A program made the translations under genes and the position numbers. From the sequence record PZ386957.1: DNA of 64,000 nucleotides; one strand, written 5' to 3'. This DNA comes from a phage. The notes below the pieces were generated by a model. It did not search any database, was not told the DNA's origin, and worked only from the letters and a program-made list of their open reading frames with translations. Of this stretch, positions 7,110 to 45,384 are shown one piece after another. Position 1 is the first letter of the stretch, and each line of letters starts with the position of its first letter.

Positions 7110-7217
7110 TTACTTAATGATACTTACTTTACCAGATCCGTGACAATGAGCGCAACACCCATCACCACGCAATCCTGTTCCGTTACAGTGTTTACACTTC
7201 TTCAAAGGTAAAGCCAT
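7110..7217 (-). CDS. Small zinc-ribbon protein (35 aa)
   Basis: Hand-translated MALPLKKCKHCNGTGLRGDGCCAHCHGSGKVSIIK; CxxC...CxxC pattern; below the 60-aa track cutoff. Confidence 0.45.
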   Translation of the reverse strand: MALPLKKCKHCNGTGLRGDGCCAHCHGSGKVSIIK

Positions 7218-7257
7218 TATGGCAAATAAAGCAATAATGAACACCGAAACTAAATTC

Positions 7258-7527
7258 TCAATAATCATAAATCGCCCTCAGTTCTTTATAGCCTCCAATG
7301 TGCTCGTTGTCAATGAATATCTGGGGGTATACAAATCGGAGGCTGTCTTTACCCAACCTCCCCGCCAGTTCTTCAATCATATCACGGTCGGGAATAATGT
7401 CAACCCCGACCTGCTTGAATACTGGTTTAAGTGTATACGGAATACCCAGATCATCCAGTAGCTTCATTGCACTAATACAACCATAACAATGATAAGCCTC
7501 TTTCGGTATACCGTATATCTCGATCAT
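7258..7527 (-). CDS. nrdH: Glutaredoxin-like protein (NrdH-like)
   Basis: 89 aa; CYGC redox motif near N-terminus; YPQIF...HIGGY glutaredoxin fold signature; T4 nrdH position. Confidence 0.75.
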   Translation of the reverse strand: MIEIYGIPKEAYHCYGCISAMKLLDDLGIPYTLKPVFKQVGVDIIPDRDMIEELAGRLGKDSLRFVYPQIFIDNEHIGGYKELRAIYDY

Positions 7528-8024
7528 TTCTCAGCCTTTAATCTTTCCAGTTCTTCTTCCAGTTCCTTGATGCGTTGTTCTCGTTCAAAATCACGCTGTA
7601 ACTTAGTGGCGAATACTCGTTTAAACTGATTGTAATCATCGATTTTAAACACTTCTTCTTCGCCATAGCGACGTACAGAAACTTCGTAGTTATTGAAGAA
7701 TTGTTGCATCATTGCTTCGGATGATAGTTCTGCTGATACTACTTTAAAATATTGATCTTCTGTAGGCGAAAACCAATTGCAAGCATAAAGATAAACCTTT
7801 TCATTGTCTGGACACTGGTAAGCCTTACCATCGATTTCAATCACAGAAACATATTCAGGTATAGTAGATGAATCAATAGCTAAGACTTTAAACTGACGGT
7901 CCCCGATAAACTCGGAGATCGCACGATTCGCATCACTGATCGCAAATGCTTTACGCGCTTGTTCGTTTTTCCACTGATAGGTCATGCCAACAACAAACAT
8001 ATTACCAACCTCGCTCTTTACCAA
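7524..8024 (-). CDS. Paralog-family protein (GKTY-WK module + C-terminal coiled coil)
   Basis: 166 aa; MTYQWKNEQARKAF module; C-terminal KELEEELERLKAEK. Confidence 0.6.
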   Translation of the reverse strand: MVKSEVGNMFVVGMTYQWKNEQARKAFAISDANRAISEFIGDRQFKVLAIDSSTIPEYVSVIEIDGKAYQCPDNEKVYLYACNWFSPTEDQYFKVVSAELSSEAMMQQFFNNYEVSVRRYGEEEVFKIDDYNQFKRVFATKLQRDFEREQRIKELEEELERLKAEK

Positions 8025-8835
8025 TCAAAAATTCAACTTCACGACGTTTAATGTCTTCTTGAAGGTCTTTAATCTTCTGGCGATCTTGCATGATTTCGTC
8101 CATTTTGTCAAGTGCTGCGATGAAATCATCGAAACGTTCAAAGGTTTTACCTTCATTTGCTTCGCCAAATTTAACCATTGTCAGGCCGTAACGACTACTA
8201 AACAGACGTTTCAACTGTCCAACGACCTTAGAATCATCGTTCACCTTTTCTTCTGGTTCTTTCACTGTTTCAACTTCACGAAAATATTTTCGTTCAAGCC
8301 CAACAAACCACACAGCATCAACATCATCATCAACACCCGCCGAATGAGGATTAAATGTTCCACAAGCATTATCATTATTGACGTCGATCATAGTAACGAA
8401 ACCAACAGAATCAACGGAAGATACCGTAAAAGTCTCATCTCCTATCCAATCAGCAATTTTACGGTTGATATTAGAACAGTGAGAAAACGTCACTTTTGCG
8501 TTTACATCTTTCCAAGTATAAGTTTTACCAACTTCCCATTTAGGAGGAACTTCTTCAACTTCACGAAAGAATTTTCTATCGAATGGACTAAAGAAATATG
8601 TTGATGTCCAAATGTCTTTTCCTGTAGCAGTTTTCGCCGTATGATAAACACCGTCTAGCTCTATTGCATCAATCCAACCGTTACCCTCGATCTCGATGAT
8701 GGTAAATGGCTTGTCACCAATAGCTACACTAATATCGCTGTTAAGTGGAGAAAGACAACCGTCTACGTTAGTAATAAACTCAGTTTTAGCGTTTTCGTCT
8801 TTCCAAGTGTAAGTTTTACCAATTTCCCATTTCAT
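8002..8835 (-). CDS. Paralog-family protein with two tandem GKTYTWKD modules
   Basis: 277 aa; WEIGKTYTWKDENAKTEF and WEVGKTYTWKDVNAKVTF, each followed by ERKFFREVE-type motif; coiled-coil tail. Confidence 0.6.
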   Translation of the reverse strand: MKWEIGKTYTWKDENAKTEFITNVDGCLSPLNSDISVAIGDKPFTIIEIEGNGWIDAIELDGVYHTAKTATGKDIWTSTYFFSPFDRKFFREVEEVPPKWEVGKTYTWKDVNAKVTFSHCSNINRKIADWIGDETFTVSSVDSVGFVTMIDVNNDNACGTFNPHSAGVDDDVDAVWFVGLERKYFREVETVKEPEEKVNDDSKVVGQLKRLFSSRYGLTMVKFGEANEGKTFERFDDFIAALDKMDEIMQDRQKIKDLQEDIKRREVEFLIGKERGW

Positions 8836-8847
8836 AATATAATCCTC

Positions 8848-9327
8848 TTAACCGATTTTATCAAGTTCGTTTAATGCTTTCTCTGCTTCCTGTATAGCTT
8901 GCACCCTTTCCGGCATTTTGTCAAGAAAATCTTTCAACTCTTCAAAACTGGAGATATGACGCAAGGCGTTAGCACCGATAGCCGCATGTGATTTGCATTC
9001 AAAGCGAATTTTATAATTATCCATCGCCAACTTGAGAAGATCAATTAGTTTAGATTCTTCTGGAATAATAATTTCTTCAAATCTGCTACGGTCATGATCC
9101 AGAAACCAACAAGATAGACCTACATCGGTTGAACTCATATAAGTTCCATCATGAAGATATACAGACCGCACGTATCCTTTTTTCGCATCAACCGACGCAA
9201 CTTTAAACGGTAATCTCAGATATTTCAAATAATCAACATCATACCATTTAAAAAATTGGTTTGCATCTTTTACATCTTTCCACGCATAGGTCTTACCAGC
9301 TTCCCATTTCATAATATCATCTCTCAT
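8848..9327 (-). CDS. Paralog-family protein (GKTY-WKD module)
   Basis: 159 aa; KWEAGKTYAWKDVKDANQF; coiled-coil tail. Confidence 0.6.
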   Translation of the reverse strand: MRDDIMKWEAGKTYAWKDVKDANQFFKWYDVDYLKYLRLPFKVASVDAKKGYVRSVYLHDGTYMSSTDVGLSCWFLDHDRSRFEEIIIPEESKLIDLLKLAMDNYKIRFECKSHAAIGANALRHISSFEELKDFLDKMPERVQAIQEAEKALNELDKIG

Positions 9328-9856
9328 TTTTGATACGTGATTCTAATTGGATCATACGGTCGCGCGTTTGCTTGTATTCACGGATAGCACCGATCCGGCT
9401 AGGCATACCATCTAGGACGCTCTTAATCCCTTCTAGGGTAGTGATTTTAGCAATGCTATTATGTAACCCCATCTTATCGATCAACTGAATGTCGTAGGCT
9501 TCCATAAGCAGTCCCAGACGTTCTAAGGTTAAATCTTGTTCTTTATCTTCTTCCGATTCTGGAATCTTAGGTTCAATAGTAACTTCGGTAAAGAAACGAC
9601 GCTCACCACCCCAAAACCACACACCGGAACAGTCAATAGGGGATTCTTTTAAAGTCATGGAGTCGAAATCACTACCAATAATAGTAATTTCTCTAACATC
9701 ACCATCGTCGTCAATGTCTTCTACCTTAAACGGGCGACCAGCCAACAGGTCCATAATACATCTGTTAATACCAGACGAAAATTTAGTCAGTTCGGCTTTC
9801 GACGCTTCGCATTCAATCTTGTAAGTTTTACCAACTTCCCATTCCATAATAATCAC
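9317..9856 (-). CDS. Paralog-family protein (GKTY module)
   Basis: 179 aa; EWEVGKTYKIECEASKAEL; ERRFFTEV motif; coiled-coil tail. Confidence 0.6.
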   Translation of the reverse strand: MIIMEWEVGKTYKIECEASKAELTKFSSGINRCIMDLLAGRPFKVEDIDDDGDVREITIIGSDFDSMTLKESPIDCSGVWFWGGERRFFTEVTIEPKIPESEEDKEQDLTLERLGLLMEAYDIQLIDKMGLHNSIAKITTLEGIKSVLDGMPSRIGAIREYKQTRDRMIQLESRIKNER

Positions 9857-10578: not shown

Positions 10579-11127
10579 TTATTTTAAATTTTTTCGAATG
10601 TATTCAGACCATTCCTTCCCTGTCAGTTCGGTCCCATTCTGGAAACTGAAATATTCATACGGCATCGAGTCAAGATAAAACAGGATCATACATCGCGCCA
10701 TATAATACCAATCACGATTAAAGTAAACTACGTTATCACCAGTACCATCAACCCCTTTATCATAACCATCGCTGGTACGGGCGACCCATTGAATAGTATC
10801 ATTTTTCTCACGGATAGTCACAGGTTCCCAATATCCAGCACATCCAGCATGACCACACGAACAAGTAAGGAAATATTGCCCTTTTGCTTTGTTGTCATCC
10901 CATTCACGATGGATTGGTTCGATCTCGTGAAACAGTGCCAAACAATCATGATTATGCAACACTGGCTTACCATCAATCAATGCATGGAATGTATACAAAC
11001 GACCCGTAGACAAATAGCTATCCTCACGCTCAACCAGTTCAATAGCAATCTTTTTAGCTCGTTCTTTGTGTCGTTGTGCTTTACGCTTACGGTTTAATGA
11101 TTTCATATTCACCTCACACATTATCAA
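10579..11127 (-). CDS. Hypothetical protein (Cys/His-rich)
   Basis: 182 aa; basic N-terminus; CSCGHAGCAGY cluster. Confidence 0.55.
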   Translation of the reverse strand: MIMCEVNMKSLNRKRKAQRHKERAKKIAIELVEREDSYLSTGRLYTFHALIDGKPVLHNHDCLALFHEIEPIHREWDDNKAKGQYFLTCSCGHAGCAGYWEPVTIREKNDTIQWVARTSDGYDKGVDGTGDNVVYFNRDWYYMARCMILFYLDSMPYEYFSFQNGTELTGKEWSEYIRKNLK

Positions 11128-11665
11128 AGGTCGCGATATAGTACATTATGAAAATGAGAACTTGCATTACCAATATTGTAGATAACAAATTCTTCATCCG
11201 GCGCTTGCGCTACAAATTGAGTATGAGCAACCGCTACGACTTTAAAAATACGATCCGTGATCTTGTGCTTAATTTCTGCCCCTACTTCCATAGGAACATA
11301 TTCATTTGTTTCTGTTTCAGTCGCAAAACAGCCATCTTCTTCATAAGCACGAACAAATCGGTCGCAATCAGTACGCTTAACAAATTCAAGAGTATATAAT
11401 TCTCGTGAATTGTCGGTATAGACCAATACAGAATTATTATGATAGCGAATCACATACAGGTTATTATCATCGTCAATTACGCAAAAGCTACGGATTCCTT
11501 CGCCTTGACTCCAGCAGATATTAACCACCGTTCCTCTAATAAAAAAACTTTCCTTTAAATTAAAACTAGTCAATGTGCTAGCGTGCATTTTAACAACAAC
11601 ACCATCACCAATTTCCAGTTTACGAAGTTTAACTTCTTTGCTCAGTACACAAAACATCATCATAT
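11124..11665 (-). CDS. Hypothetical protein
   Basis: Start reassigned to MMMFCV after the promoter/leader at 11692-11719; about 180 aa. Confidence 0.55.
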
Positions 11666-11691
11666 TGTCCTCTCTTTGTTTCGATGTGAGC

Positions 11692-11719
11692 ATTATACAT
11701 GAGCTAATCATGTTGTCAA
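11692..11719 (-). promoter_or_regulatory. Promoter TTGACA-16-TATAAT with CATCGAAAC leader
   Basis: Minus-strand read; preceded by nrdD terminator. Confidence 0.65.
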
Positions 11720-11725
11720 CACCCC

Positions 11726-11757
11726 AAAACGAAAAAGCCGACCCTTTCGGATCGGCT
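11726..11757 (-). terminator. Intrinsic terminator after nrdD
   Basis: GCCGATCC-GAAA-GGGTCGGC hairpin then TTTTTCGTTTT. Confidence 0.75.
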
Positions 11758-11762
11758 AAAAA

Positions 11763-13625
11763 TTACATGTGCTTAACGCGGTTTACCATCTCGGAGTGTT
11801 TCCCGTGGTTAAATGGACGCAGATCAACAGATCCAAGATATCCACTAACGCGGCGGATAACATTCATCTTTTCCAGATTGTCATTGCCGCAATCAGGGCA
11901 AACAAAACCAGACTCGGTCGCTCTCATTTCCTTATTAGATCCGCATACATGACATACATCAGAAGGAGTATTAACACCGAAGTAGTGCAATTTATCCATT
12001 GCATAGTCTACTACAGTTTCAAGACCTTTCAGGTTGTTTTTCATGTCTGGGAACTCAACATAAGAGATCATGCCACCGGACGCCAGACAGTGATAATCTT
12101 TCTCAAAGTCGATTTTCTCAAACGGTGTAACCTTCCGGTCTACGTCAAGGTGGAATGAGTTGGTGTACCAGTCTTTATCGGTAGCACCCTTAACAATACC
12201 AAATTGCTCTCGGTCCAGTCGATTAAATCGATAGCAAAGGCTCTCGGCTGGCGTACCGTAAAGACTAAAACCAAGTCCGGTTTCGTCCTTCCATTTTTCA
12301 GTATAATGACGCAAGATCTTAAGAATATGTTTACCGTATCGCTGCGCATCTTCCGAATCAAACGGATGAACACCAAACAGGACGCTCAATACCTCATGTA
12401 AACCAATATACCCAAGAGAGATACTAGCGCGACCATCTTTCAGCACTTCCAAAATTTCATCGTTTTGATGAATACGGAAAAATGCACCTTCGGTATACAG
12501 TACAGGGGCAACATTGGCTTTAGCACCTTTTAAAGCGTCTACGCGACTCATGAGAGCATCAAAACAAATAGGCATACGATTAGCTAGCTCTTGTTCGAAT
12601 AGCTCAATTCTGCGCATTACAGACGCTTTACCAGCACGACGCGCGGCAATAAGGGCAATACGCGGAAGATTCAGAGTCACAACACCCAAGTTATTACGTC
12701 CGTCTAATACTTCTTCGCCTTTCTCATTATGCCACACACCCAGGAAGCTACGACAACCCATCGGGCTAACCGGAACACTAGATCCGGTGATACTACGGTT
12801 ATTCTTCGCAGAGATATAATCAGGGTAAAGACGCTTACTAGAACATTCCAATGCAAGTTGCTTAATGTCGTAGTTCGGATCTTCCGGTTTAAGGTTTAAT
12901 CCTTCTTCTAAGAACATCACCAGCTTAGGAAACACCGGAGTTATACCATCTTTACCTAAACCTTTAGTTCGAACTTTCAGGATCGCTTTCTGAATCAGTT
13001 TTTCTTCCCAGCTAGTACCCATACCAAAGGTTAAAGTCACAAAAGGCGTTTGACCGTTGGTGGAGAACAAAGTGTTGATTTCATATTCCAACGCTTGATA
13101 CCCGTCTAAAGTTTCTTTTTCTGTCTTCTCTTGTGCATAGAGAGTATCAGCTTTGATTCCGTAGGTTTCGGCATCAGCAAGGTGTTTATGATATGTTTTC
13201 TCAACATACGGTGCTAACACCTGATCGATGTTTGCAATTGTGGTCCCGCCATATTGATGACTTGCCACCTGTGCGATAATTTGAGCGGTTACAGCACAAG
13301 CAACGCCGATTGATCTCGGACTTTCGATTTGTGCACTACCCAATTTAAAACCATTCTCTAACATGTCCTTGAGATTAACAAGACAGCAGTTAGTAAACGG
13401 CATAGCGGGTGCATAATCCATATCATGATAATGAATATCACCGTCTACATGCGCTTTATAGATGTGCTCAGGTAACACGGTTTTAGCAATCTGTTTAGAC
13501 ACAGCGCCAGCAATCAGATCTCGACGTGTCGGGAATGTTCGCGCGTCTTTGTTCGCGTTCTCTTTGCTTACTTCGTTTTCTTTACCCGTTGCAATCTCTG
13601 TAATGTCTTTGATTAGTTTTTCCAT
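11763..13625 (-). CDS. nrdD: Anaerobic ribonucleoside-triphosphate reductase NrdD (class III, glycyl radical)
   Basis: 620 aa; C-terminal CPDCG zinc motif and glycyl-radical motif RRVSGYLG; uninterrupted ORF. Confidence 0.92.
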   Translation of the reverse strand: MEKLIKDITEIATGKENEVSKENANKDARTFPTRRDLIAGAVSKQIAKTVLPEHIYKAHVDGDIHYHDMDYAPAMPFTNCCLVNLKDMLENGFKLGSAQIESPRSIGVACAVTAQIIAQVASHQYGGTTIANIDQVLAPYVEKTYHKHLADAETYGIKADTLYAQEKTEKETLDGYQALEYEINTLFSTNGQTPFVTLTFGMGTSWEEKLIQKAILKVRTKGLGKDGITPVFPKLVMFLEEGLNLKPEDPNYDIKQLALECSSKRLYPDYISAKNNRSITGSSVPVSPMGCRSFLGVWHNEKGEEVLDGRNNLGVVTLNLPRIALIAARRAGKASVMRRIELFEQELANRMPICFDALMSRVDALKGAKANVAPVLYTEGAFFRIHQNDEILEVLKDGRASISLGYIGLHEVLSVLFGVHPFDSEDAQRYGKHILKILRHYTEKWKDETGLGFSLYGTPAESLCYRFNRLDREQFGIVKGATDKDWYTNSFHLDVDRKVTPFEKIDFEKDYHCLASGGMISYVEFPDMKNNLKGLETVVDYAMDKLHYFGVNTPSDVCHVCGSNKEMRATESGFVCPDCGNDNLEKMNVIRRVSGYLGSVDLRPFNHGKHSEMVNRVKHM

Positions 13626-13635
13626 TGTATCACCT

Positions 13636-13660
13636 ATGAAAAAGCGGGATTTCTCCCGCT
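13636..13660 (-). terminator. Hairpin plus U-tract between 13670-14164 and nrdD (possible attenuating terminator)
   Basis: GCGGGA-GAAA-TCCCGC then TTTTT, 15 nt before the nrdD ATG. Confidence 0.5.
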
Positions 13661-13669
13661 CGTTGATAG

Positions 13670-14164
13670 TTATTTTACCAGTTCTGCTAATTCTTTTTCC
13701 GCCGCTTCCAGTTCAGCTTTCAGTTGTTTGATCTCTTGTCGCTTCTTATTAGCGGCTTCCTGCTTACTATTTCGGATAACCTGATCTAGATACAACTCCC
13801 AATCCTGAATATTTTTGATAATGTAGCCGTCAACATTAATTGGTCGGAGATTCAGTACAGCTTCCAGTTTAGTTGCAAAAACTTTAATTGCTGGGGTGAA
13901 GTATTCATATTCGTTATCTTCAAACCAATAACCTAGACTTGCATTCTCAATACGAAGATGAAGTTTAAGATCAAGGTCTTTATCATCGGTATATAGGTCT
14001 TTTACACACCCCATAGAATTAACAACAACTTTAAAACGAATTTTATCTACACCACCAAAAACATCTTCAAGAATATCAGCAATTGAGCTATTAGCGCAAG
14101 ATTGGTCGCTGAATGCGTCAAGGTTTTCTTTAGTTACAGTATACCAAACATCTTGTACCCACAT
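13670..14164 (-). CDS. Paralog-family protein (related module + coiled-coil tail)
   Basis: 164 aa; ASLGYWFEDNEYEYF motif; C-terminal KQLKAELEAAEKELAELVK. Confidence 0.55.
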   Translation of the reverse strand: MWVQDVWYTVTKENLDAFSDQSCANSSIADILEDVFGGVDKIRFKVVVNSMGCVKDLYTDDKDLDLKLHLRIENASLGYWFEDNEYEYFTPAIKVFATKLEAVLNLRPINVDGYIIKNIQDWELYLDQVIRNSKQEAANKKRQEIKQLKAELEAAEKELAELVK

Positions 14165-14193
14165 AATATAATCCTCTCGTTGTTAAGTGGGAG

Positions 14194-14221
14194 TATTATA
14201 GCATACTCCCTTCGCATGTCA
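14194..14221 (-). promoter_or_regulatory. Promoter TTGACA-16-TATAAT, -10 inside inverted repeat GGGAGTAT...ATACTCCC
   Basis: Minus-strand read upstream of 13670-14164. Confidence 0.65.
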
Positions 14222-15397
14222 AGCACTAACTTTTTTCTTTACTGCTTTCACCTTCTGGCGAATTGCTCGAATCTCTTCGATCTCTTTTTCAGTCTCTTTA
14301 ACAATTTCTTTGCGATTCTGAATATCTGTATCGAGATTATCATCAAGTTTAGGCAGCATGTCAATCAAGAACTTTTTAAAGTCTTTCAGGTTTCGAATAA
14401 CAGCACCTTCGCCCATTACCGCAACACCCACACCATCCGGCAGATCACCAAACAGCTTAACCAGTTCAGACAGATGATCATGATCTTCTAGTGCTTCTTC
14501 CGGTTCAGATGGCAGTTCAACAAAGTTATAACGTTCATCATTGCTGATCAAGTGATACCAGCAAAGCCCGAAAGATTTCGGTGTATATTCTACACCATCA
14601 ATTTCAACCGCGTCAACACTTCCATAATCATCTACTTTAGTTACCTTAAATCCTTGTCCCAGCTTTTGAACAATTTCAACAACATGACTTGATACAGTTT
14701 CAGCGGTAAACCAATATGGCAAATTATGCTGATTTGGCTTGTAGCGTTCACCTACTTTAAATCTCTGACCATCCGCTTGCATAGAATGAAATTGTTGTTT
14801 CGTGATTTCCGCGAAGTATTCAAATTCGCCACCATCAAACACACAAGCCCATTGATCACAAAAACGATCTGCCTTAACAGTTTCACCTTTCGCGGTGATC
14901 ATGGTAGCTGATCCGTGCAATTCTTCTTCAACTAAAAAGCCATATTCGACAAAATCAACAAGTTTCATAGCTTCTTTGTGATCTGGATCATGCTCTCCCC
15001 AGAATCGCTTAAATTCTTGCAAACCTTCTGGGGTAAACGAATAACATTTACCTTTTTCAAAGTAAGTCGGCATTGCATCCTCTTTCTTGTTCATCGCTTC
15101 GTATGCCTCTTTTGAGATGCGTTTAAAGTATTTACGCTCATTGTGCATAATCATAGTAGCCCAATAATCAACAATATCATTAGCGGAATAAACTACATCT
15201 CCAGCTTCAATAGTAATAACATGACCGTGGTCATCTTTTTCTAATACTTTAAAGCCCTTTTCTACGATTTCAGCAACCCGAATATGACCACGGCGCGAAG
15301 CATCGGTCAGAATAATTGAATAGCGAGAAAAGTCTAGAAACTCATCTTTACCGCCTTCACGGAATGCATAGTAATGACCTTCAAAGAATTTAGCCAT
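14219..15397 (-). CDS. Paralog-family protein with multiple tandem modules
   Basis: 392 aa; repeated GFKV..D..G.V..IE.DG..Y units; NERKYFKRISK motif; coiled-coil tail. Confidence 0.6.
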   Translation of the reverse strand: MAKFFEGHYYAFREGGKDEFLDFSRYSIILTDASRRGHIRVAEIVEKGFKVLEKDDHGHVITIEAGDVVYSANDIVDYWATMIMHNERKYFKRISKEAYEAMNKKEDAMPTYFEKGKCYSFTPEGLQEFKRFWGEHDPDHKEAMKLVDFVEYGFLVEEELHGSATMITAKGETVKADRFCDQWACVFDGGEFEYFAEITKQQFHSMQADGQRFKVGERYKPNQHNLPYWFTAETVSSHVVEIVQKLGQGFKVTKVDDYGSVDAVEIDGVEYTPKSFGLCWYHLISNDERYNFVELPSEPEEALEDHDHLSELVKLFGDLPDGVGVAVMGEGAVIRNLKDFKKFLIDMLPKLDDNLDTDIQNRKEIVKETEKEIEEIRAIRQKVKAVKKKVSA

Positions 15398-15428
15398 AAT
15401 ATAATCCTCTCGTTGTTTAGATGGGAGT

Positions 15429-15457
15429 ATCTTACTACTCCCGTTTCATCATGTCAA
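15429..15457 (-). promoter_or_regulatory. Promoter TTGACA-17-TAAGAT, -10 inside inverted repeat GGGAGTAG...TACTCCC
   Basis: Minus-strand read upstream of 14219-15397. Confidence 0.6.
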
Positions 15458-16038
15458 GCGTTAAATGACTTTTGGATCTCTTTCAGTTCAGCTACTTTAT
15501 CGGCGCTATATTTTGCTTGATGTTCCATGCGCTTAAGCTCACCTTTGATATAGGTTTCTAGCTTAGGTTTATTCTCAATCAGAAAATCTTTCAAGTCATC
15601 GGCATTTTTAAAGTATAGCTGATTATCAAAGCTAAAATCTTCCAGCGTCAAGGATACCAAAGAAGATTTCGCAAACAAGTTAATCAGATCTTCCAGAGAT
15701 TCTTCTTTCTTAACTGGTTTCATTTCTTCAAACTGCTTTTTAGTGATGCGTTTAAAGTATTTGCGCTCGTTTGCAGCAATCAGAACAGATGCACCTTCAT
15801 ACCCATGAGTTTCTACCAGATACACACGCCCCATCGCATCAACAGTGAGAACTTTAAAGCCGTTACAAAGCACGTCATACAAGAACTTATTATGTTGCGG
15901 ACATCGTTTGATAAATTCTGCGGCTGTTTCTGCACTACGGAAAGTGTAATAACGACCTCGTTCAAAAGCAGCATCATTTGAAGACTTAGCCGGATACAAT
16001 TTATACGTTTTCTGTACCATAATATAATCCTCTATCAT
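15454..16038 (-). CDS. Paralog-family protein
   Basis: 194 aa; NERKYFKRITK motif shared with 14219-15397; coiled-coil tail. Confidence 0.6.
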   Translation of the reverse strand: MIEDYIMVQKTYKLYPAKSSNDAAFERGRYYTFRSAETAAEFIKRCPQHNKFLYDVLCNGFKVLTVDAMGRVYLVETHGYEGASVLIAANERKYFKRITKKQFEEMKPVKKEESLEDLINLFAKSSLVSLTLEDFSFDNQLYFKNADDLKDFLIENKPKLETYIKGELKRMEHQAKYSADKVAELKEIQKSFNA

Positions 16039-16307
16039 TTCACTAATTGAACAGCACGAAACAGAATGCGGTCACACGGAAGAAGCATAAATTCCCAACG
16101 CGGATCAAAGTCTTTAGCGGTATATGTTTTCCCATCAACCGAGATTTCACTTACATAACCAATAGGTGACACTTTAAGAACAGTAAACCCATTCTTGATG
16201 ACTTCGTAGGTATCTTTCAAACCTTCGTAGTCATCCTCTAGGAAGTCTTTACGTGCTTGCTCAGATTTAAAAACATAGGCCACACCGGATTTAAACATCT
16301 TACGCAT
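16035..16307 (-). CDS. Paralog-family protein (single module)
   Basis: Start reassigned to MRKMFKSGVAYVFKSEQARKDF after promoter at 16339-16368; about 90 aa. Confidence 0.5.
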   Translation of the reverse strand: MRKMFKSGVAYVFKSEQARKDFLEDDYEGLKDTYEVIKNGFTVLKVSPIGYVSEISVDGKTYTAKDFDPRWEFMLLPCDRILFRAVQLVK

Positions 16308-16338
16308 TGTTGATTCTCCTTCTTGATTAGATGGGAGT

Positions 16339-16368
16339 ATTTTACTACTCCCATTTCTTATTGTCAAC
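16339..16368 (-). promoter_or_regulatory. Promoter TTGACA-17-TAAAAT, -10 inside inverted repeat GGGAGTAG...TACTCCC
   Basis: Minus-strand read upstream of 16035-16307. Confidence 0.6.
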
Positions 16369-16370
16369 TA

Positions 16371-16859
16371 CTATCTTAATCTTTGTATAAATTGTTTCTT
16401 ATACTTCTTCGTGATCTCTTCTCTTGTATCAGCGTCACAGTAATCGAAACCTTCTGCGTCCATAATAGCAACCATCTCCGCGCGTGTCAAGCGTGAAAAT
16501 CGTTTTACTTTATCAACAGCATATTGAGGATGTAAATGATTGTTGGTGTAGTCTCCTTTGATGTAATTAACATAGTTTGTAGCCCAAACAACGAAATCAG
16601 CACCTAAAGCACCAACACCAAACCGTTTAAAGTCTCCGGTCAACGATCCTTCTAGGCGGTTGCAACACGAATGAAGCAATCCCCTTACGCGGCCTTGCCC
16701 TTTACCATCTAGATCGTGGTCGTGGTCAAGATGGTTTTTGCTCATATCCTCAAAAAGTGGCAATTGACAAAGGGGGCAAATGCCCCCCTGTTTTTCGAAT
16801 AGTTCTTGTTTGTACTCTTTAGCACTCTTAGCAGTCAGTAACATAAATTCACCCTCCAA
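16371..16859 (-). CDS. 49: Endonuclease VII (Holliday junction resolvase) gp49
   Basis: MLLTAK..CPLC..HLDHDH..VRGLLHSCCN..DYTNNHLHP..RFSRL match T4 endo VII; likely start at internal MLLT (about 16844). Confidence 0.88.
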   Translation of the reverse strand: MEGEFMLLTAKSAKEYKQELFEKQGGICPLCQLPLFEDMSKNHLDHDHDLDGKGQGRVRGLLHSCCNRLEGSLTGDFKRFGVGALGADFVVWATNYVNYIKGDYTNNHLHPQYAVDKVKRFSRLTRAEMVAIMDAEGFDYCDADTREEITKKYKKQFIQRLR

Positions 16860-30727: not shown

Positions 30728-30757
30728 ATATTACTACCCCCCGTTTCATGTTGTCAA
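30728..30757 (-). promoter_or_regulatory. Promoter TTGACA-18-TAATAT, -10 inside inverted repeat GGGGGTAG...TACCCCC
   Basis: Minus-strand read upstream of 30389-30700. Confidence 0.55.
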
Positions 30758-41649: not shown

Positions 41650-42477
41650 TTAAAACAGTTTCCAGACTTTTCGAGCGTCGTAATTTTTTCCTTTGGACAA
41701 AAATTTATAGGTCGGAAGATATACTGCCCTAGCCCAATCTTTTGGCGATATCTCTATCAGTTTTGTCCTGATATGTCCTGGCAAATATGCTTTGATCATG
41801 TGATCACTTCCACGCATACCCTTTACGTCGCTCCATTTGATTTTTAAGCGAGTTTTATTGCTTAGACTAGGGGTAGATGCGTATTGCTTTAAAAGTGCTT
41901 CTAAGAACTGTTGACGCGCTTTAGGAGGCGCATAGTGCAAGTTCAAGCCTAACATGATCGTATTACCCGCTTTACTGGTTCCTTCACCTAGACAGATGAT
42001 CAACGGAAAAGCATCGTAAAATTCAAGAGTATTCTTATATTTTGGGTCATATGCATAAGTATAGATCCGGCCTACTTGTGGTTTTACTACCTGGTGACCT
42101 TTTACTCCTGCTTTGATAGTCTTCATAAACCATTCTTGCGACTTCTCTTTAGGTCGGGATACTTTAGCCATATCCCGGAGGGACGCACGAAAATCATTAA
42201 TAAGCATCATAGCACGTTGTTGCTTATTCAAACCTTTAGCACTTTTACCCTTTAATCGTGCAATCTCAATTGCTTGTTTAATCTCTCCTGAATAACGAGA
42301 CATACTCTTAGTGAATGTGGTATAGGGTATTCCTTTTTCTTGAGCAAATGCTTTAGCTGTAATGCCTTTTGCTTTCGCTTTAGCGAACTCTATACCCAGG
42401 TCAATCCACTGTTTAGCCTTTCTTTGTTGTGGCGTTTGCTTAACGTCTTCTTCTGTGATTATTTCAAATACGCTCAT
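41650..42477 (-). CDS. 2: DNA end-protector protein gp2
   Basis: 275 aa (T4 gp2 is 274 aa); conserved position between 3 and 4; basic DNA-binding character. Confidence 0.75.
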   Translation of the reverse strand: MSVFEIITEEDVKQTPQQRKAKQWIDLGIEFAKAKAKGITAKAFAQEKGIPYTTFTKSMSRYSGEIKQAIEIARLKGKSAKGLNKQQRAMMLINDFRASLRDMAKVSRPKEKSQEWFMKTIKAGVKGHQVVKPQVGRIYTYAYDPKYKNTLEFYDAFPLIICLGEGTSKAGNTIMLGLNLHYAPPKARQQFLEALLKQYASTPSLSNKTRLKIKWSDVKGMRGSDHMIKAYLPGHIRTKLIEISPKDWARAVYLPTYKFLSKGKNYDARKVWKLF

Positions 42478-42488
42478 AATATTATCCT

Positions 42489-42965
42489 CTATTTGTTAAG
42501 CCCTTTAAACCCGAATACTTTCTTTAATGCATGTTCGGTGATGATCTTAAACTCCATGTTATTTTTCTTACATAGTTCCACCGCCGCAGCCCATTTTTCT
42601 GTATTCACTGTGTATGTGTAACATTCTTGCATATATCTTTGCTTAGTCTTTGCCGTTATTCGTTTTGGTTTTTGTGGTGGCATTGTTTCTTTTGCTGGTT
42701 TTATTTCCCATAGATACTCCTTACCATCATCAAATTTAACTGCGATATCCATATAATAACGGCGTTTCTTGTTATCGGCGCTGGACCAGTATGGAATTAC
42801 TACCGTCTCAGATCCCCACCTAACCACATGTGGATTGCGGTCGAGCCAACGGAAAATGTGCAGCTCCCAAGATGACCGATACGTGATTTTATGAATGTTG
42901 GGACCGCGATACTTCTCAGGATTTTCTGGCTTAAATTTGCCCTTGTAAGTGTTAGATCCTCCCAT
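42489..42965 (-). CDS. 4: Head completion protein gp4
   Basis: 158 aa (T4 gp4 is 150 aa); divergent from gene 53 as in T4. Confidence 0.75.
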   Translation of the reverse strand: MGGSNTYKGKFKPENPEKYRGPNIHKITYRSSWELHIFRWLDRNPHVVRWGSETVVIPYWSSADNKKRRYYMDIAVKFDDGKEYLWEIKPAKETMPPQKPKRITAKTKQRYMQECYTYTVNTEKWAAAVELCKKNNMEFKIITEHALKKVFGFKGLNK

Positions 42966-42980
42966 TTTAGCACCCTTTCT

Positions 42981-42988
42981 TATAAATA
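42981..42988 (+). promoter_or_regulatory. T4 late-type promoter TATAAATA (gene 53)
   Basis: Exact TATAAATA about 24 nt upstream of the gene 53 ATG. Confidence 0.6.
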
Positions 42989-43011
42989 CATAATACTATT
43001 TATTAATTGGA

Positions 43012-43575
43012 GTGCGAAAAATGCTCTTTTCTTTCTTCCCAGCCGTAGAATACAATGGCAAGATGATTACTGACATTGTGCGAAATTATCGCGCCTACTT
43101 TAATTCTATCATCTCAGATTATAATATTCAAACTTATTACATTCAGGGTAGCCCACGACCGGAACAAGTTGCATATGAAGTATACGGAAATCAGCAATTA
43201 TATTGGATCTTGTTGATGTTAAATGACGTATATGATCCGTTCCATGACTGGATCACCGATCAGGAGACTGCCTATGAATCAGCCGAACAGCGTTACTCCC
43301 GCGTAGGAGGAAATCAGGTATTATATCACGTTGACATTGACGGAAACAAGTATTGGAACTTAACAGAATATCCGAAGGGATCAGAGAACTGGTATGATAA
43401 AGGCGATATTCATCACCGTCATTTGCAGTTTCATGGTGCATTGTCGGCAGTCGATACACTAGAAGATGCAATTCTTCGTAATGAGGAACGACGCAAGATT
43501 AAAATTATCGATCCGACTCAAATTAAACAATTCATTAACGCGTTTATTCGTGAAATGGAAAAGGCTGATGTGTAA
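43012..43575 (+). CDS. 53: Baseplate wedge protein gp53
   Basis: 187 aa; TATAAATA late promoter at 42981-42988; position before gene 5. Confidence 0.7.
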   Translation: MRKMLFSFFPAVEYNGKMITDIVRNYRAYFNSIISDYNIQTYYIQGSPRPEQVAYEVYGNQQLYWILLMLNDVYDPFHDWITDQETAYESAEQRYSRVGGNQVLYHVDIDGNKYWNLTEYPKGSENWYDKGDIHHRHLQFHGALSAVDTLEDAILRNEERRKIKIIDPTQIKQFINAFIREMEKADV

Positions 43576-43584
43576 GGTGATAAC

Positions 43585-45384
43585 ATGTTAATGATTAATA
43601 ACTCCGTTAAATGGTTTACCGGGATTGTGGAAAACAGGGAAGATCCATTGATGTTAGGACGGTTACAGGTCCGTATTCATGGTGTACACCCTTCATTATC
43701 CGCTCACGGTGATATACAAGGTTTACCGACCGAAGACCTGATATGGATTACTCCAGTACAAGATATTACAAGCGCGGCGATCTCCGGTATAGGCCAAAGT
43801 CCTACTGGTATTGTTGAAGGTTCAATGGTATTTGGTTTAGCCTTAGATGAACGTTATTTGAATTGCCTTATTCTGGGGACAATTGCAGGACAATATACAG
43901 AGCAACCATTAACAACCGAGGGATTTTGTGATCCGTCCGGTGCATATCCTCGCTATATCGGCAACGATGTTAATATTCTTGCTCGCGGCGGGGTTAATCC
44001 ATCAACGGGACAAACAACAAAACCTGATAGTGTCTATATTCGAGATGAAAACACTGGAGTTGCCGTAAATCCAGACGACGAGCCATTAGACCAAATTCCG
44101 GTTGACGATAACCCAGAATACACAATAGAAAAAATGTTGCGGGGCGATGAGGGATATCGCGAGAAATGGTATCTTGATTCAGAAGGATATCCGACAATAG
44201 GCATCGGGCATTTGATCATTTATAAGAAAACCAGTGATCTGGGTATTATCAATAATGAACTTTCTAAGCTGGTAGGGCGTGAAGTTACAAACGGAAGACT
44301 TACCGCCGAAGAAGTTAGTAAAGTATTTGCTGACGATATAGAAAAGACTCGTCGTGATATGCGCAAACATCCACGAATTGCACCTGTCTATAATAAATGT
44401 AATGCCTCACGTCGTATGGCATTAGAAAATATGGCGTTTCAAATGGGTGTTGGTGGATTGGGTAAATTTAAGAATAGTCTTGCTGCAATGCTGGCGGAAG
44501 AATGGAAACAAGCCTATGATGGATTACGTCAATCTGTATGGGCTAATCAAACTCCAGGACGCTCCAGCCGTGTTTCTAAAATTATTTTAACTGGTAACTT
44601 AGAATCATATGGCGTAATTGCTCCAAAGAAAGAGGAATCAATTTCGGATGATCCGCGAGCACGTTTAAGAAATGCCCGTATTGCTGCCTATAAGACACAG
44701 AGAGCAGAAGAAGACCCAGAAGCACCGTTTACCCCACAAGACACACGAATCATGTTTAAAGAGCCTAAGAGTTCGTATTCTGCAAGGTATCCTTATAACC
44801 ATGTGTACGAGTCAGAGAGCGGTCATATTATCGAGATTGATGATACTCCTTCTCATGAGCGATATCATCGTAAACATCCTTCTGGTACATTTGAAGAAAC
44901 CAGACCGGACGGAACGAGGGTAGAAAAGATTGAAGGCGATGACTATTTGATCGTTAAACAAGGCCGGAAAGTAAACGTTAAGGGTAATTTGCAAGTTGTT
45001 GTTGAAGGTGACGCGCAAGTTTATTATATGGGTAATGTTATGCAAACCGTTGATGGTAACGTCACTGAATTTATTCGTGGCAATGTTAATCAGACCGTTG
45101 AAGGCACTGCTAACATGCATGTTGTCGGTGATGTTATCGCACAGCTTGACGCTAATTTGACGGCTAATGTCAAGGGTAATGCTGAATTAATGATCGAGGG
45201 TAACACTACAGAGACAATTAAAGGTAACTATGATTTAACCGTTGAGGGTAATTTTAATATGACCGTCAATGGCACTAAATCAGATCAGGTTAATGGTGAC
45301 TGGTCCCGTAATTGTGGTGCAAGCGTTAAAGATATTGCATCTGGTACAGTTAAAATTGATGGTAGCCGTATTGATCTTGGGTGA
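43585..45384 (+). CDS. 5: Baseplate hub/cell-puncturing protein gp5 with lysozyme domain
   Basis: 599 aa; lysozyme motif GYPTIGIGHL; C-terminal beta-helix VxGxxxxx octapeptide repeats. Confidence 0.9.
   Translation: MLMINNSVKWFTGIVENREDPLMLGRLQVRIHGVHPSLSAHGDIQGLPTEDLIWITPVQDITSAAISGIGQSPTGIVEGSMVFGLALDERYLNCLILGTIAGQYTEQPLTTEGFCDPSGAYPRYIGNDVNILARGGVNPSTGQTTKPDSVYIRDENTGVAVNPDDEPLDQIPVDDNPEYTIEKMLRGDEGYREKWYLDSEGYPTIGIGHLIIYKKTSDLGIINNELSKLVGREVTNGRLTAEEVSKVFADDIEKTRRDMRKHPRIAPVYNKCNASRRMALENMAFQMGVGGLGKFKNSLAAMLAEEWKQAYDGLRQSVWANQTPGRSSRVSKIILTGNLESYGVIAPKKEESISDDPRARLRNARIAAYKTQRAEEDPEAPFTPQDTRIMFKEPKSSYSARYPYNHVYESESGHIIEIDDTPSHERYHRKHPSGTFEETRPDGTRVEKIEGDDYLIVKQGRKVNVKGNLQVVVEGDAQVYYMGNVMQTVDGNVTEFIRGNVNQTVEGTANMHVVGDVIAQLDANLTANVKGNAELMIEGNTTETIKGNYDLTVEGNFNMTVNGTKSDQVNGDWSRNCGASVKDIASGTVKIDGSRIDLG

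Follow-up and report, generated by a model that had tools for sequence, protein, structure and literature searches.

What are the four adjacent genes between gene 49 and nrdD in the phage sequence PZ386957.1, and how are they related to a similar group of genes between nrdG and nrdH on the same DNA? The analysed stretch, called the window here, is 64,000 nt long and comes from the genome of a Krischvirus (RB49/JSE-like) coliphage; its positions 13600–16400 are 95–97% identical on the DNA level to RB49, JSE, Phi1, ECD7, and KMB43. The four genes between gene 49 and nrdD were designated B1–B4 (cluster B), and those between nrdG and nrdH were designated A1–A4 (cluster A; Table 1). An earlier inspection of the letters alone (the sequence-only reading) had taken 13670–16307 for a second cluster of the paralog family of cluster A, and this was borne out for an N-terminal module. 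Probably, the locus represents one of two sites in an RB49-like phage at which the GoF/Frd.2/MotB.1 family has expanded locally; it is associated with promoter-early stem-loop (PeSL) cassettes and may code for early accessory factors.

The four cluster B genes delimited earlier are all present as minus-strand open reading frames (ORFs), with the start of B3 shifted. This start is most likely the ATG at 16020, 18 nt downstream of 16038, because its AGAGGATTATATT-ATG leader (Shine–Dalgarno (SD) sequence and spacer) is the same as in B1 and B2, and a product of 188 aa is annotated in G2248. Starts of cluster A genes were refined according to the JSE annotation and the M(K/E)WE.GKTY register.

A module shared by both clusters

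A module of about 90 aa at the N-terminus is common to all eight genes of clusters A and B. Eleven copies were recognized, as three are in B2 and two in A2. The module has the pattern F/W-x-x-G-x-x-Y, a helical segment ending with F, F-K-V-x-x-V-D-x-x-G-x-V-x-x-I-x-x-D-G, and then W-x-F-x-x-x-E-R-x-Y-F; fully or almost fully conserved in it are G, Y, F, F, V, G, and F, i.e., glycines and an aromatic/aliphatic core. A hidden Markov model (HMM) built from cluster A only matched B2 (E 1.6e-13), B4 (2.3e-9), B3 (2.4e-7), and B1 (9e-4), and the model built from cluster B only matched A2 (6.6e-17), A1 (4.7e-8), A4 (2.7e-7), and A3 (2.8e-6), while the best unrelated ORF among the 599 ORFs of the window had E ≥ 0.05 with the module HMMs. 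Models trained with one gene left out recovered each gene with E from 6e-7 to 4e-30, including B1, the most divergent one, at 5.9e-7. A profile–profile comparison of the two clusters, which the sequence-only reading had named as the test able to overturn it, revealed clear similarity for the N-terminal module (hhalign, 98.1% probability, E 9.7e-14). No further module copy was detected by HMM among the 599 window ORFs; the 195-aa ORF at 11124–11711 was considered as a family member and rejected, as its E value with the module HMM was only 0.06–0.44.

The 392-aa B2 protein, previously noticed as a multi-module member, consists of three tandem modules and a tail. The modules cover aa 1–108 (15074–15397), 109–206 (14780–15073), and 207–303 (14489–14779), and the tail covers aa 304–392; three domains were detected by HMM with independent E values of 1e-23 to 1e-29. 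The motif units reported earlier as common to the genes were borne out as the approximately 90-aa module with its F-K-V/D-G pattern, but only B2 module 1 and B3 contain NERKYFKRI(S/T)K to the letter, at a place where their DNA is 77% identical over 53 nt. Its counterpart in cluster A is (E/D)R(K/R/S)(Y/F/R)F(R/T/E)E(V/I). Overall, pairwise identity of the modules is 16–40%: B2 module 1 and B3, and likewise the two A2 modules, are 40% identical, and modules from different clusters 16–31%.

Both clusters are also linked by the PHROG profiles phrog_5347, phrog_622, and phrog_3710. Cluster A proteins matched phrog_5347 with E from 1e-59 to 1e-70, and phrog_8944 'goF' was matched by B2 (4e-214) and B3 (5.7e-97). 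B4 matched phrog_16115 (4.9e-63), with cross matches to phrog_5347 (5e-8) and phrog_8944 (3.3e-4). The profile matched by B1, phrog_3710 (6.2e-5), was matched by A1, A2, A4, and B2 as well.

Membership in the GoF/Frd.2/MotB.1 family

Profile matches identify the module with the N-terminal domain found in T4 GoF (also called ComC-alpha), Frd.2, and MotB.1. When T4 proteins were searched with the window-module HMM in a database of 604 sequences, GoF (which was outside the training set) was found at E 1.1e-10, Frd.2 at 3.1e-5, and MotB.1 at 0.011; T4 GoF was also matched by the cluster-A-only HMM (2.9e-8) and the cluster-B-only HMM (3.8e-5). The PHROG 'goF' families 8944, 13003, and 2980 match B2, B3, B4, A1, and A2. 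B2 has borne the label frd.2 since deposition of the RB49 genome; it is annotated so in RB49, Phi1, and JSE, and as 'goF mRNA metabolism modulator' in RefSeq.

The family was defined by Kim et al. 2025 (PMC12152347) by its N-terminal domain of about 82–91 aa, a five-stranded barrel that they called LSm-like; the nearest structural neighbours of the GoF N-domain are FeoA and IdeR-type SH3-like domains, and the C-terminal domains vary. The genes are non-essential and early. The mutant GoF(D25Y) stabilises reporter mRNA, while wild-type GoF and MotB.1 do not, and AlphaFold 3 (AF3) gave no confident hexamer. RB49-like phages, tandem modules, and coiled coils are not mentioned in that paper (PMC12152347).

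The window proteins share with this family the homologous five-stranded N-terminal barrel of about 90 aa, the conserved F / FKV / G / E..F pattern, and the same structural neighbours (FeoA, IdeR). Both sets are acidic proteins of T4-like phages from regions of early genes (presumed early in the window), with a linker joining the N-module to the C-terminal domain (in B1–B3 and A1–A4, B4 being the exception). They differ in number and architecture. T4 has three dispersed single-module genes, whereas this phage has nine, eight of them in two tandem clusters; two window proteins have two or three tandem modules, and the tails of seven (helix, beta-hairpin, and long helix) are unmatched by T4 GoF and Frd.2. 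The ninth member was found in the near-identical KMB43 (OR525698.1) at 12570–13205, adjoining the gene 41 helicase/primase region. It is locus L009, an annotated coding sequence for 211 aa, with the module at aa 15–111 of a 217-aa ORF (HMM E 1e-7 to 1e-9), and it brings the genome to nine genes with twelve modules.

The suppressor substitution G84R of T4 goF corresponds in the alignment to the K/R of ERKYF; five of the 11 window modules have K or R there by nature (ERKYF, DRKFF, ERRFF). From this alignment, Krischvirus paralogs may already carry the 'gain-of-function' basic residue of GoF. Alignment of GoF D25 to the window modules was discarded as unreliable, since the residue falls in a variable loop.

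A word-indexed homologue search gave close Krischvirus relatives only, and the family became visible in an exhaustive representative search, in which the module profile matched 101 representatives at E ≤ 1e-3 among 1.84 billion proteins. Most of them are 120–190 aa long and begin with the module (residue 1). Two modules occur in about 14, and three in one protein other than B2 (354 aa); the three-module B2 orthologue itself is restricted to Krischvirus in tblastn. About ten giant proteins (476–4352 aa) match only profile positions of about 10–70, several times each, and were set aside as probably repeat or compositional matches; among them are P0036, P0042, P0063, P0066, P0073, P0074, P0086, and others of about 800–4350 aa, with 4–10 matches each. 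Structural matches to the B2 model in BFVD are all phage proteins, and those with names are mostly from T4-like phages of Morganella, Cronobacter, Pectobacterium, Aeromonas, Proteus, Klebsiella, Citrobacter, and Serratia. 'Dc2', an ECD7 protein of 211 aa, is also among these matches.

Predicted fold, tails, and charge

In AlphaFold 2 (AF2) models, the modules have predicted local distance difference test (pLDDT) values of 80–90 and the order strand, helices, three strands, strand, and helix; the model of B2 (pLDDT 74) contains three repeated beta-barrel units. The nearest folds in PDB are FeoA and IdeR-type/DtxR SH3-like domains, with weak scores, and no Hfq, Sm, or LSm protein was among the top structural matches. 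The module is thus predicted to be an SH3-like barrel (a bent five-stranded antiparallel sheet) closest to FeoA, and this term fits the fold better than 'LSm' because Hfq and Sm proteins are missing from the top matches. FeoA and the C-terminal SH3-like domain of DtxR/IdeR/ScaR/SloR have no detectable sequence similarity to the phage modules. A two-helix insert after strand 1 is a feature of the phage modules, the metal-related gene context is absent at the phage locus, and the modules do not fall into Pfam FeoA. With Hfq and Sm/LSm proteins, the modules share a small, bent, five-stranded beta-sheet and, through the GoF mutant, a genetic link to mRNA stability. Differences are in the helices, as LSm has an N-terminal helix and the phage module a helical insert after strand 1, in the acidic character of most phage modules, and in the ring, which was not predicted for them. 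The full set of Sm/LSm/Hfq features (N-terminal helix with five bent strands, Sm1/Sm2, ring, and RNA binding) was not found in the modules. Pfam and NCBIfam gave sub-threshold noise only (RecT, LYR, and rpoE), and these assignments were rejected, as none of the scores came near the curated cut-offs; among PDB sequences, a profile search revealed nothing credible.

Net charge is between −2 and −9 in 9 of the 11 modules, and the modules of B3 (+5) and B4 (+1) are basic or neutral. Surfaces of the modules are divergent over a conserved hydrophobic core.

Coiled-coil tails had been ascribed to all the genes. In AF2 models, B1–B3 and A1–A4 indeed have, after a low-pLDDT linker, a tail composed of a short helix, a beta-hairpin, and a long helix (37 aa in B3 and 55 aa in B2), but B4 is a bare module, and homology of tails between clusters is not significant. 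Sequence relations of the tails were found in pairs within clusters only (B2–B3, A3–A4, and, by BLAST, A1–A2). Between clusters, hhalign gave 23% with window tails and 30% with enlarged alignments (P about 5e-4), and leave-one-out models of the tails mostly failed (E about 1). A coiled coil in the tails is plausible from the long AF2 helices and from heptads recognized by eye.

Promoter/stem-loop cassettes

A promoter and stem-loop for each gene had also been proposed. Such cassettes stand upstream of B4, B2, and B1, but B3 has none: no promoter or hairpin of its own was found by promoter scan and hairpin search, and it starts 14 nt after B4, retaining only the SD/leader part of a cassette. 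B3 is most likely co-transcribed with B4. The layout of the three cassettes is TTGACA, 6–9 nt, a GGGAGTA(T)...(A)TACTCCC hairpin with the −10 in its loop and 3' arm, and then the conserved leader, SD, and ATG. Their promoters match 10–12 of the 12 consensus positions. The stem-loop of the B4 cassette, ATGGGAGTA/gtaaaa/TACTCCCAT at 16354–16331, is followed by the SD AAGGAG and the ATG at 16307; the promoter scan gave 11/12, the fold has −13.8 kcal/mol (z −3.8), and a terminator is annotated here in G2248. In the B2 cassette, GGGAGTA/gtaaga/TACTCCC lies at 15442–15423 (−11.9 kcal/mol, z −2.7), and the stop TGA of B3 (15456–15454) sits inside the −35. The B1 cassette has the stem-loop GGGAGTAT/gctata/ATACTCCC at 14210–14189 (−14.5 kcal/mol, z −3.4) and a promoter with 12/12 consensus and an extended TG; here, the stop TGA of B2 (14221–14219) sits inside the −35. 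In cluster A, no cassette of TTGACA and hairpin was found by regular-expression and hairpin search.

The cassettes are PeSLs, known from RB49 and phi1. Arbiol et al. 2010 (PMC2839356) described the PeSL as a sigma-70 promoter with a stem-loop, 'most commonly between the -35 and -10 or overlapping the -10'. Promoter and terminator activity was shown for PeSLs 211/210 and 206/205, and 193/192 yielded mutant clones only; PeSL–PeSL recombination yields mini-circles carrying single ORFs in RB49 and phi1 (PMC2839356). As in published PeSLs (PMC2839356; Comeau et al. 2014, PMC4122927), there is an upstream stop codon in an AT-rich stretch, a consensus TTGACA, a G-rich/C-rich hairpin between the −35 and −10 that overlaps the −10, and then SD and ATG. 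No essential difference was found, and the activity proven on other PeSL copies is predicted for these three. Further PeSLs of the same layout, with which these three align, have TTGACA starting at 30757, 36113, and 38628 on the minus strand; their stems carry the compensatory changes GGGGGTA/TACCCCC and GGGTGTAT/ATACACCC, so that pairing is kept and the stem sequence is not.

The terminator-like hairpin at 13643–13660, between B1 and nrdD (−17 kcal/mol, z −4.4), is annotated as a terminator in G2248 and is missing from the consensus scan list. Another PeSL-type cassette, at 11692–11757 on the minus strand, lies directly downstream of nrdD; it has a 9-bp GC-rich hairpin with a T run (11757–11736), a perfect TTGACA-16-TATAAT (11719–11692), and a leader 77% like that of B1/B2, and it precedes the 195-aa ORF at 11124–11711.

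Conservation, rearrangements, and origin of the clusters

The full 2.8 kb of cluster B is kept at 89–97% DNA identity in 57 of 59 Krischvirus records, with all four genes in the same order; the two exceptions are the two KFS-EC records. In tblastn, orthologues of B2 with at least 90% aa identity were found in all 59 records, and the B2 and B3 queries matched Krischvirus records only among 50,697 phage records. Compared with JSE, B4 is 100% and B1 99.4% identical in aa sequence (the latter with a ratio of nonsynonymous to synonymous substitution rates, dN/dS, of 0.07), and B1, B2, and B4 are all within 98–100%. The dN/dS values lie between 0 and 0.24 in cluster B and reach 0.5 in cluster A (A2), all below 1, and on this basis the genes of both clusters are under purifying selection.

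B3 is hypervariable, with 73% aa identity to JSE (synonymous rate dS 0.68) and 71–99% among Krischviruses, and A2 is 78% identical to JSE (dS 0.34, dN/dS 0.5), while the paralogs that flank them are 95–100% identical to JSE (B4, B2, A1, and A3: 97.5–100%). Such divergence beside near-identical neighbours indicates allele replacement by recombination among Krischviruses; B3 and A2 are mosaic hot spots.

Shuffling and copy-number variation in related phages, both suggested by the sequence-only reading, were found. KFS-EC lacks exactly B4 and B3 and has a single PeSL at the junction of gp49 and B2. This PeSL is chimeric: its left half is that of the window gp49/B4 PeSL and its right half that of the B2 PeSL, with the crossover within about 12 nt of the 5' arm of the stem and the loop, and the missing segment corresponds to the 910-bp spacing between the starts of the B4 and B2 PeSLs. 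The junction sequence supports PeSLs as mediators of shuffling and loss of the ORFs they flank, and the natural loss of B4 and B3 argues for their dispensability. In cluster A, several relatives have a one-module A2 (about 180 aa), with the breakpoint in a 28-nt repeat encoding RK(Y/F)FREVE at the end of each module, and an in-frame A4::A2 chimera, with about 1.36 kb removed, is on one metagenomic contig. The cluster A span is 1.9–2.2 kb in KFS-EC, ELT4, AV108, and E26, compared to about 2.45 kb in most other records. Judged from these breakpoints, cluster A loses modules by recombination at repeated coding sequence.

Chance or composition as the cause of the similarity, or decay of the ORFs as non-functional duplicates, could be suggested by pairwise identities of just 16–40% and by the lack of a Pfam or NCBIfam model; this explanation, to which practically no probability is given, is refuted by the cross-cluster HMM and hhalign results, by leave-one-out E values of 6e-7 to 4e-30 against ≥ 0.05 for the best unrelated ORF, and by dN/dS of 0–0.5 in ORFs that are all intact and kept across 59 genomes, with confident AF2 domains. 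Independent acquisition, the first alternative of the sequence-only reading, would mean that the four genes came by horizontal transfer as separate PeSL cassettes. Three genes do bear their own PeSL, and PeSL mini-circles with single ORFs were demonstrated in RB49 and phi1 (PMC2839356), but the proposal was not supported and is very improbable: modules of cluster B are closest to one another, and those of cluster A likewise (40% identity for B2 module 1 and B3 and for the two A2 modules, 16–31% between clusters), the B2 and B3 tails are mutually related and unrelated to cluster A tails, the order is the same in 57 of 59 genomes, and the B2 and B3 searches, in which B1 and B4 were not queried singly, stayed within Krischvirus. 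The grouping of modules and tails by cluster, together with the synteny, therefore points to old local tandem duplication, including intragenic duplication. Each cluster would have grown in this way, with modules duplicated inside genes to two in A2 and three in B2, and would later have been remodelled by PeSL–PeSL recombination, by unequal recombination between module-coding repeats, and by allele replacement at B3 and A2.

Possible function and its alternatives

If the cassettes work as other PeSLs do, host sigma-70 RNA polymerase would fire their promoters immediately after infection. Transcription would start about 7 nt past each −10, inside the 3' arm of the hairpin, and the cassette's own transcript could therefore not form the hairpin. 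Read-through RNA from upstream would form it and be attenuated, so that each cassette would be expressed from its own promoter. Three early units are expected: a B4+B3 bicistron, B2 alone, and B1 alone, the last ending at the hairpin before nrdD. The barrels are proposed to be ligand-binding modules, with a conserved hydrophobic scaffold and divergent, mostly acidic surfaces; helical tails would oligomerise them, and tandem modules would raise the valency. The proteins may be non-essential early accessory factors tuning mRNA fate, a tentative assignment held with somewhat less than even confidence and favoured because GoF(D25Y) mRNA stabilisation, together with suppression of rho alleles, is the sole functional handle of the family. 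Such action would more likely be exerted by way of RNA-handling host proteins than by binding RNA directly. Several points weigh against this interpretation. For promoter activity, attenuation, and early timing, the grounds are the consensus and experiments with other PeSL copies; oligomerisation by the tails is a supposition, and a home-made heptad score failed to tell tails from N-modules; the arrangement of the B2 modules was not confidently predicted (AF2 predicted template modelling score, pTM, 0.35). Moreover, no member of the GoF family has a demonstrated wild-type function, and the link to RNA comes from one gain-of-function mutant, GoF(D25Y).

Two other functions have to be weighed against this assignment. 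FeoA and DtxR SH3-like folds are protein-interaction domains, and the barrels could be protein-binding decoys or inhibitors in an arms race, i.e., host-range or anti-defence accessory proteins unrelated to RNA metabolism. Location in hyperplastic regions within PeSL cassettes, typical of variable accessory genes, would agree with this, as would the variability of B3 (71–99% aa identity) and A2 (78% to JSE, dN/dS 0.5), far above that of their neighbours, the natural loss of B4 and B3 in KFS-EC, and acidic, divergent surfaces over a conserved core. However, there is no direct evidence for it, dN/dS is below 1 for every gene, B1, B2, and B4 are 98–100% conserved compared to JSE, and no characterised anti-defence protein was matched (PADLOC, which contains defence and not anti-defence proteins, was not searched), so that it is regarded as rather improbable, if worth keeping in mind. 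Another reading makes the modules true LSm/Hfq-like RNA chaperones that bind RNA directly, with tandem modules and oligomerising tails closing into an Hfq-like ring, for example three modules in a dimer or two modules in a trimer. The N-domain of GoF was called LSm-like by Kim et al. 2025, GoF(D25Y) stabilises mRNA (PMC12152347), the modules of B3 (+5) and B4 (+1) are basic or neutral, and the G84R position is already K or R in 5 of 11 modules; but acidic modules prevail (9 of 11), the reporter was unaffected by wild-type GoF and MotB.1 and AF3 gave no confident hexamer (PMC12152347), the helical insert follows strand 1 where LSm has its N-terminal helix, and packing between the B2 domains was not predicted (pTM 0.35). 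This makes an RNA-binding ring unlikely. More speculative still, the Krischvirus expansion could represent diversifying multivalent adaptors, in which tandem barrels multiplied by coiled-coil tails capture a host RNA-metabolism or defence factor. The hypervariable B3 and A2 would then track host variation, and in a sub-variant, 3 × 2 or 2 × 3 modules would close into an Hfq-like pseudo-hexamer; if true, this would give the GoF family its first wild-type function.

Gene layout and neighbouring features

In the direction of transcription, the minus-strand order is dam, nrdC, gene 49, B4, B3, B2, B1, nrdD, two ORFs, nrdG, cluster A, and nrdH. Genes of cluster A are tightly packed, with gaps of up to 12 nt. 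The nrdD gene is annotated in JSE as two pieces with a homing endonuclease gene between them. The two ORFs between nrdG and nrdD, of 182 and 195 aa, fill 10579–11711 on the minus strand. A 52-aa ORF at 7110–7268 on the minus strand encodes two CxxCxGxG motifs (CKHCNGTG ... CAHCHGSG), a DnaJ-type zinc-finger pattern, after a hydrophobic N-terminus. At about 42000–44000 of the window, the GC skew flips from negative to positive, as would be expected if early genes on the minus strand give way there to genes on the plus strand. Searches of the window for tRNAs and Rfam families were negative.

Table 1. Positions of the genes and regulatory elements of clusters A and B and of their neighbours in the window
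Feature	Position	Strand	Remarks
Gene 49 (endonuclease VII)	16371–16859	−	Upstream neighbour of B4
PeSL upstream of B4	16331–16367	−	−35 TTGACA 16367–16362; −10 TAAAAT 16344–16339
B4	16035–16307	−	90 aa; single GoF-type N-module, tail-less
B3	15454–16020	−	188 aa; one module and tail; ORF start reset from 16038
PeSL upstream of B2	15423–15457	−	−35 TTGACA 15457–15452; −10 TAAGAT 15434–15429
B2	14219–15397	−	392 aa; three tandem modules and tail
PeSL upstream of B1	14189–14222	−	−35 TTGACA 14222–14217; −10 TATAAT 14200–14195
B1	13670–14164	−	164 aa; most divergent module and tail with heptad-patterned C-terminal helix
Terminator-like hairpin	13639–13660	−	AGCGGGA-GAAA-TCCCGCT and T run; between B1 and nrdD; read in sequence
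nrdD	11763–13625	−	One uninterrupted 620-aa ORF
A4	9317–9847	−	
A3	8848–9312	−	
A2	8002–8835	−	277 aa; two modules
A1	7524–8000	−	

Significance for the GoF family and RB49-like phages

GoF has been a genetic puzzle since the 1970s, and its family was recognized only in 2025. Neither the GoF/Frd.2/MotB.1 family nor the PeSL cassette is new to the literature, and the results extend these known concepts; they open no new concept and will not surprise a specialist. What seems to be undescribed is how far the family has expanded in Krischvirus, the tandem-module proteins bearing helical tails, and the natural rearrangements as mapped here. RB49-like phages have three times the number of members of T4. 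They offer natural fusions of two and three modules, the tail-less B4, modules of basic and of acidic charge, and variants arisen by natural deletion or chimera formation. Because of this diversity, they are a richer source than T4 for finding the ligand and testing valency. The locus is also a clean natural case of a cassette lost through PeSL recombination, the crossover having been placed in the hairpin, and in-frame recombination between module-coding repeats is a second case of rearrangement. Both types of rearrangement support the published model of hyperplastic-region evolution in T4-like phages.

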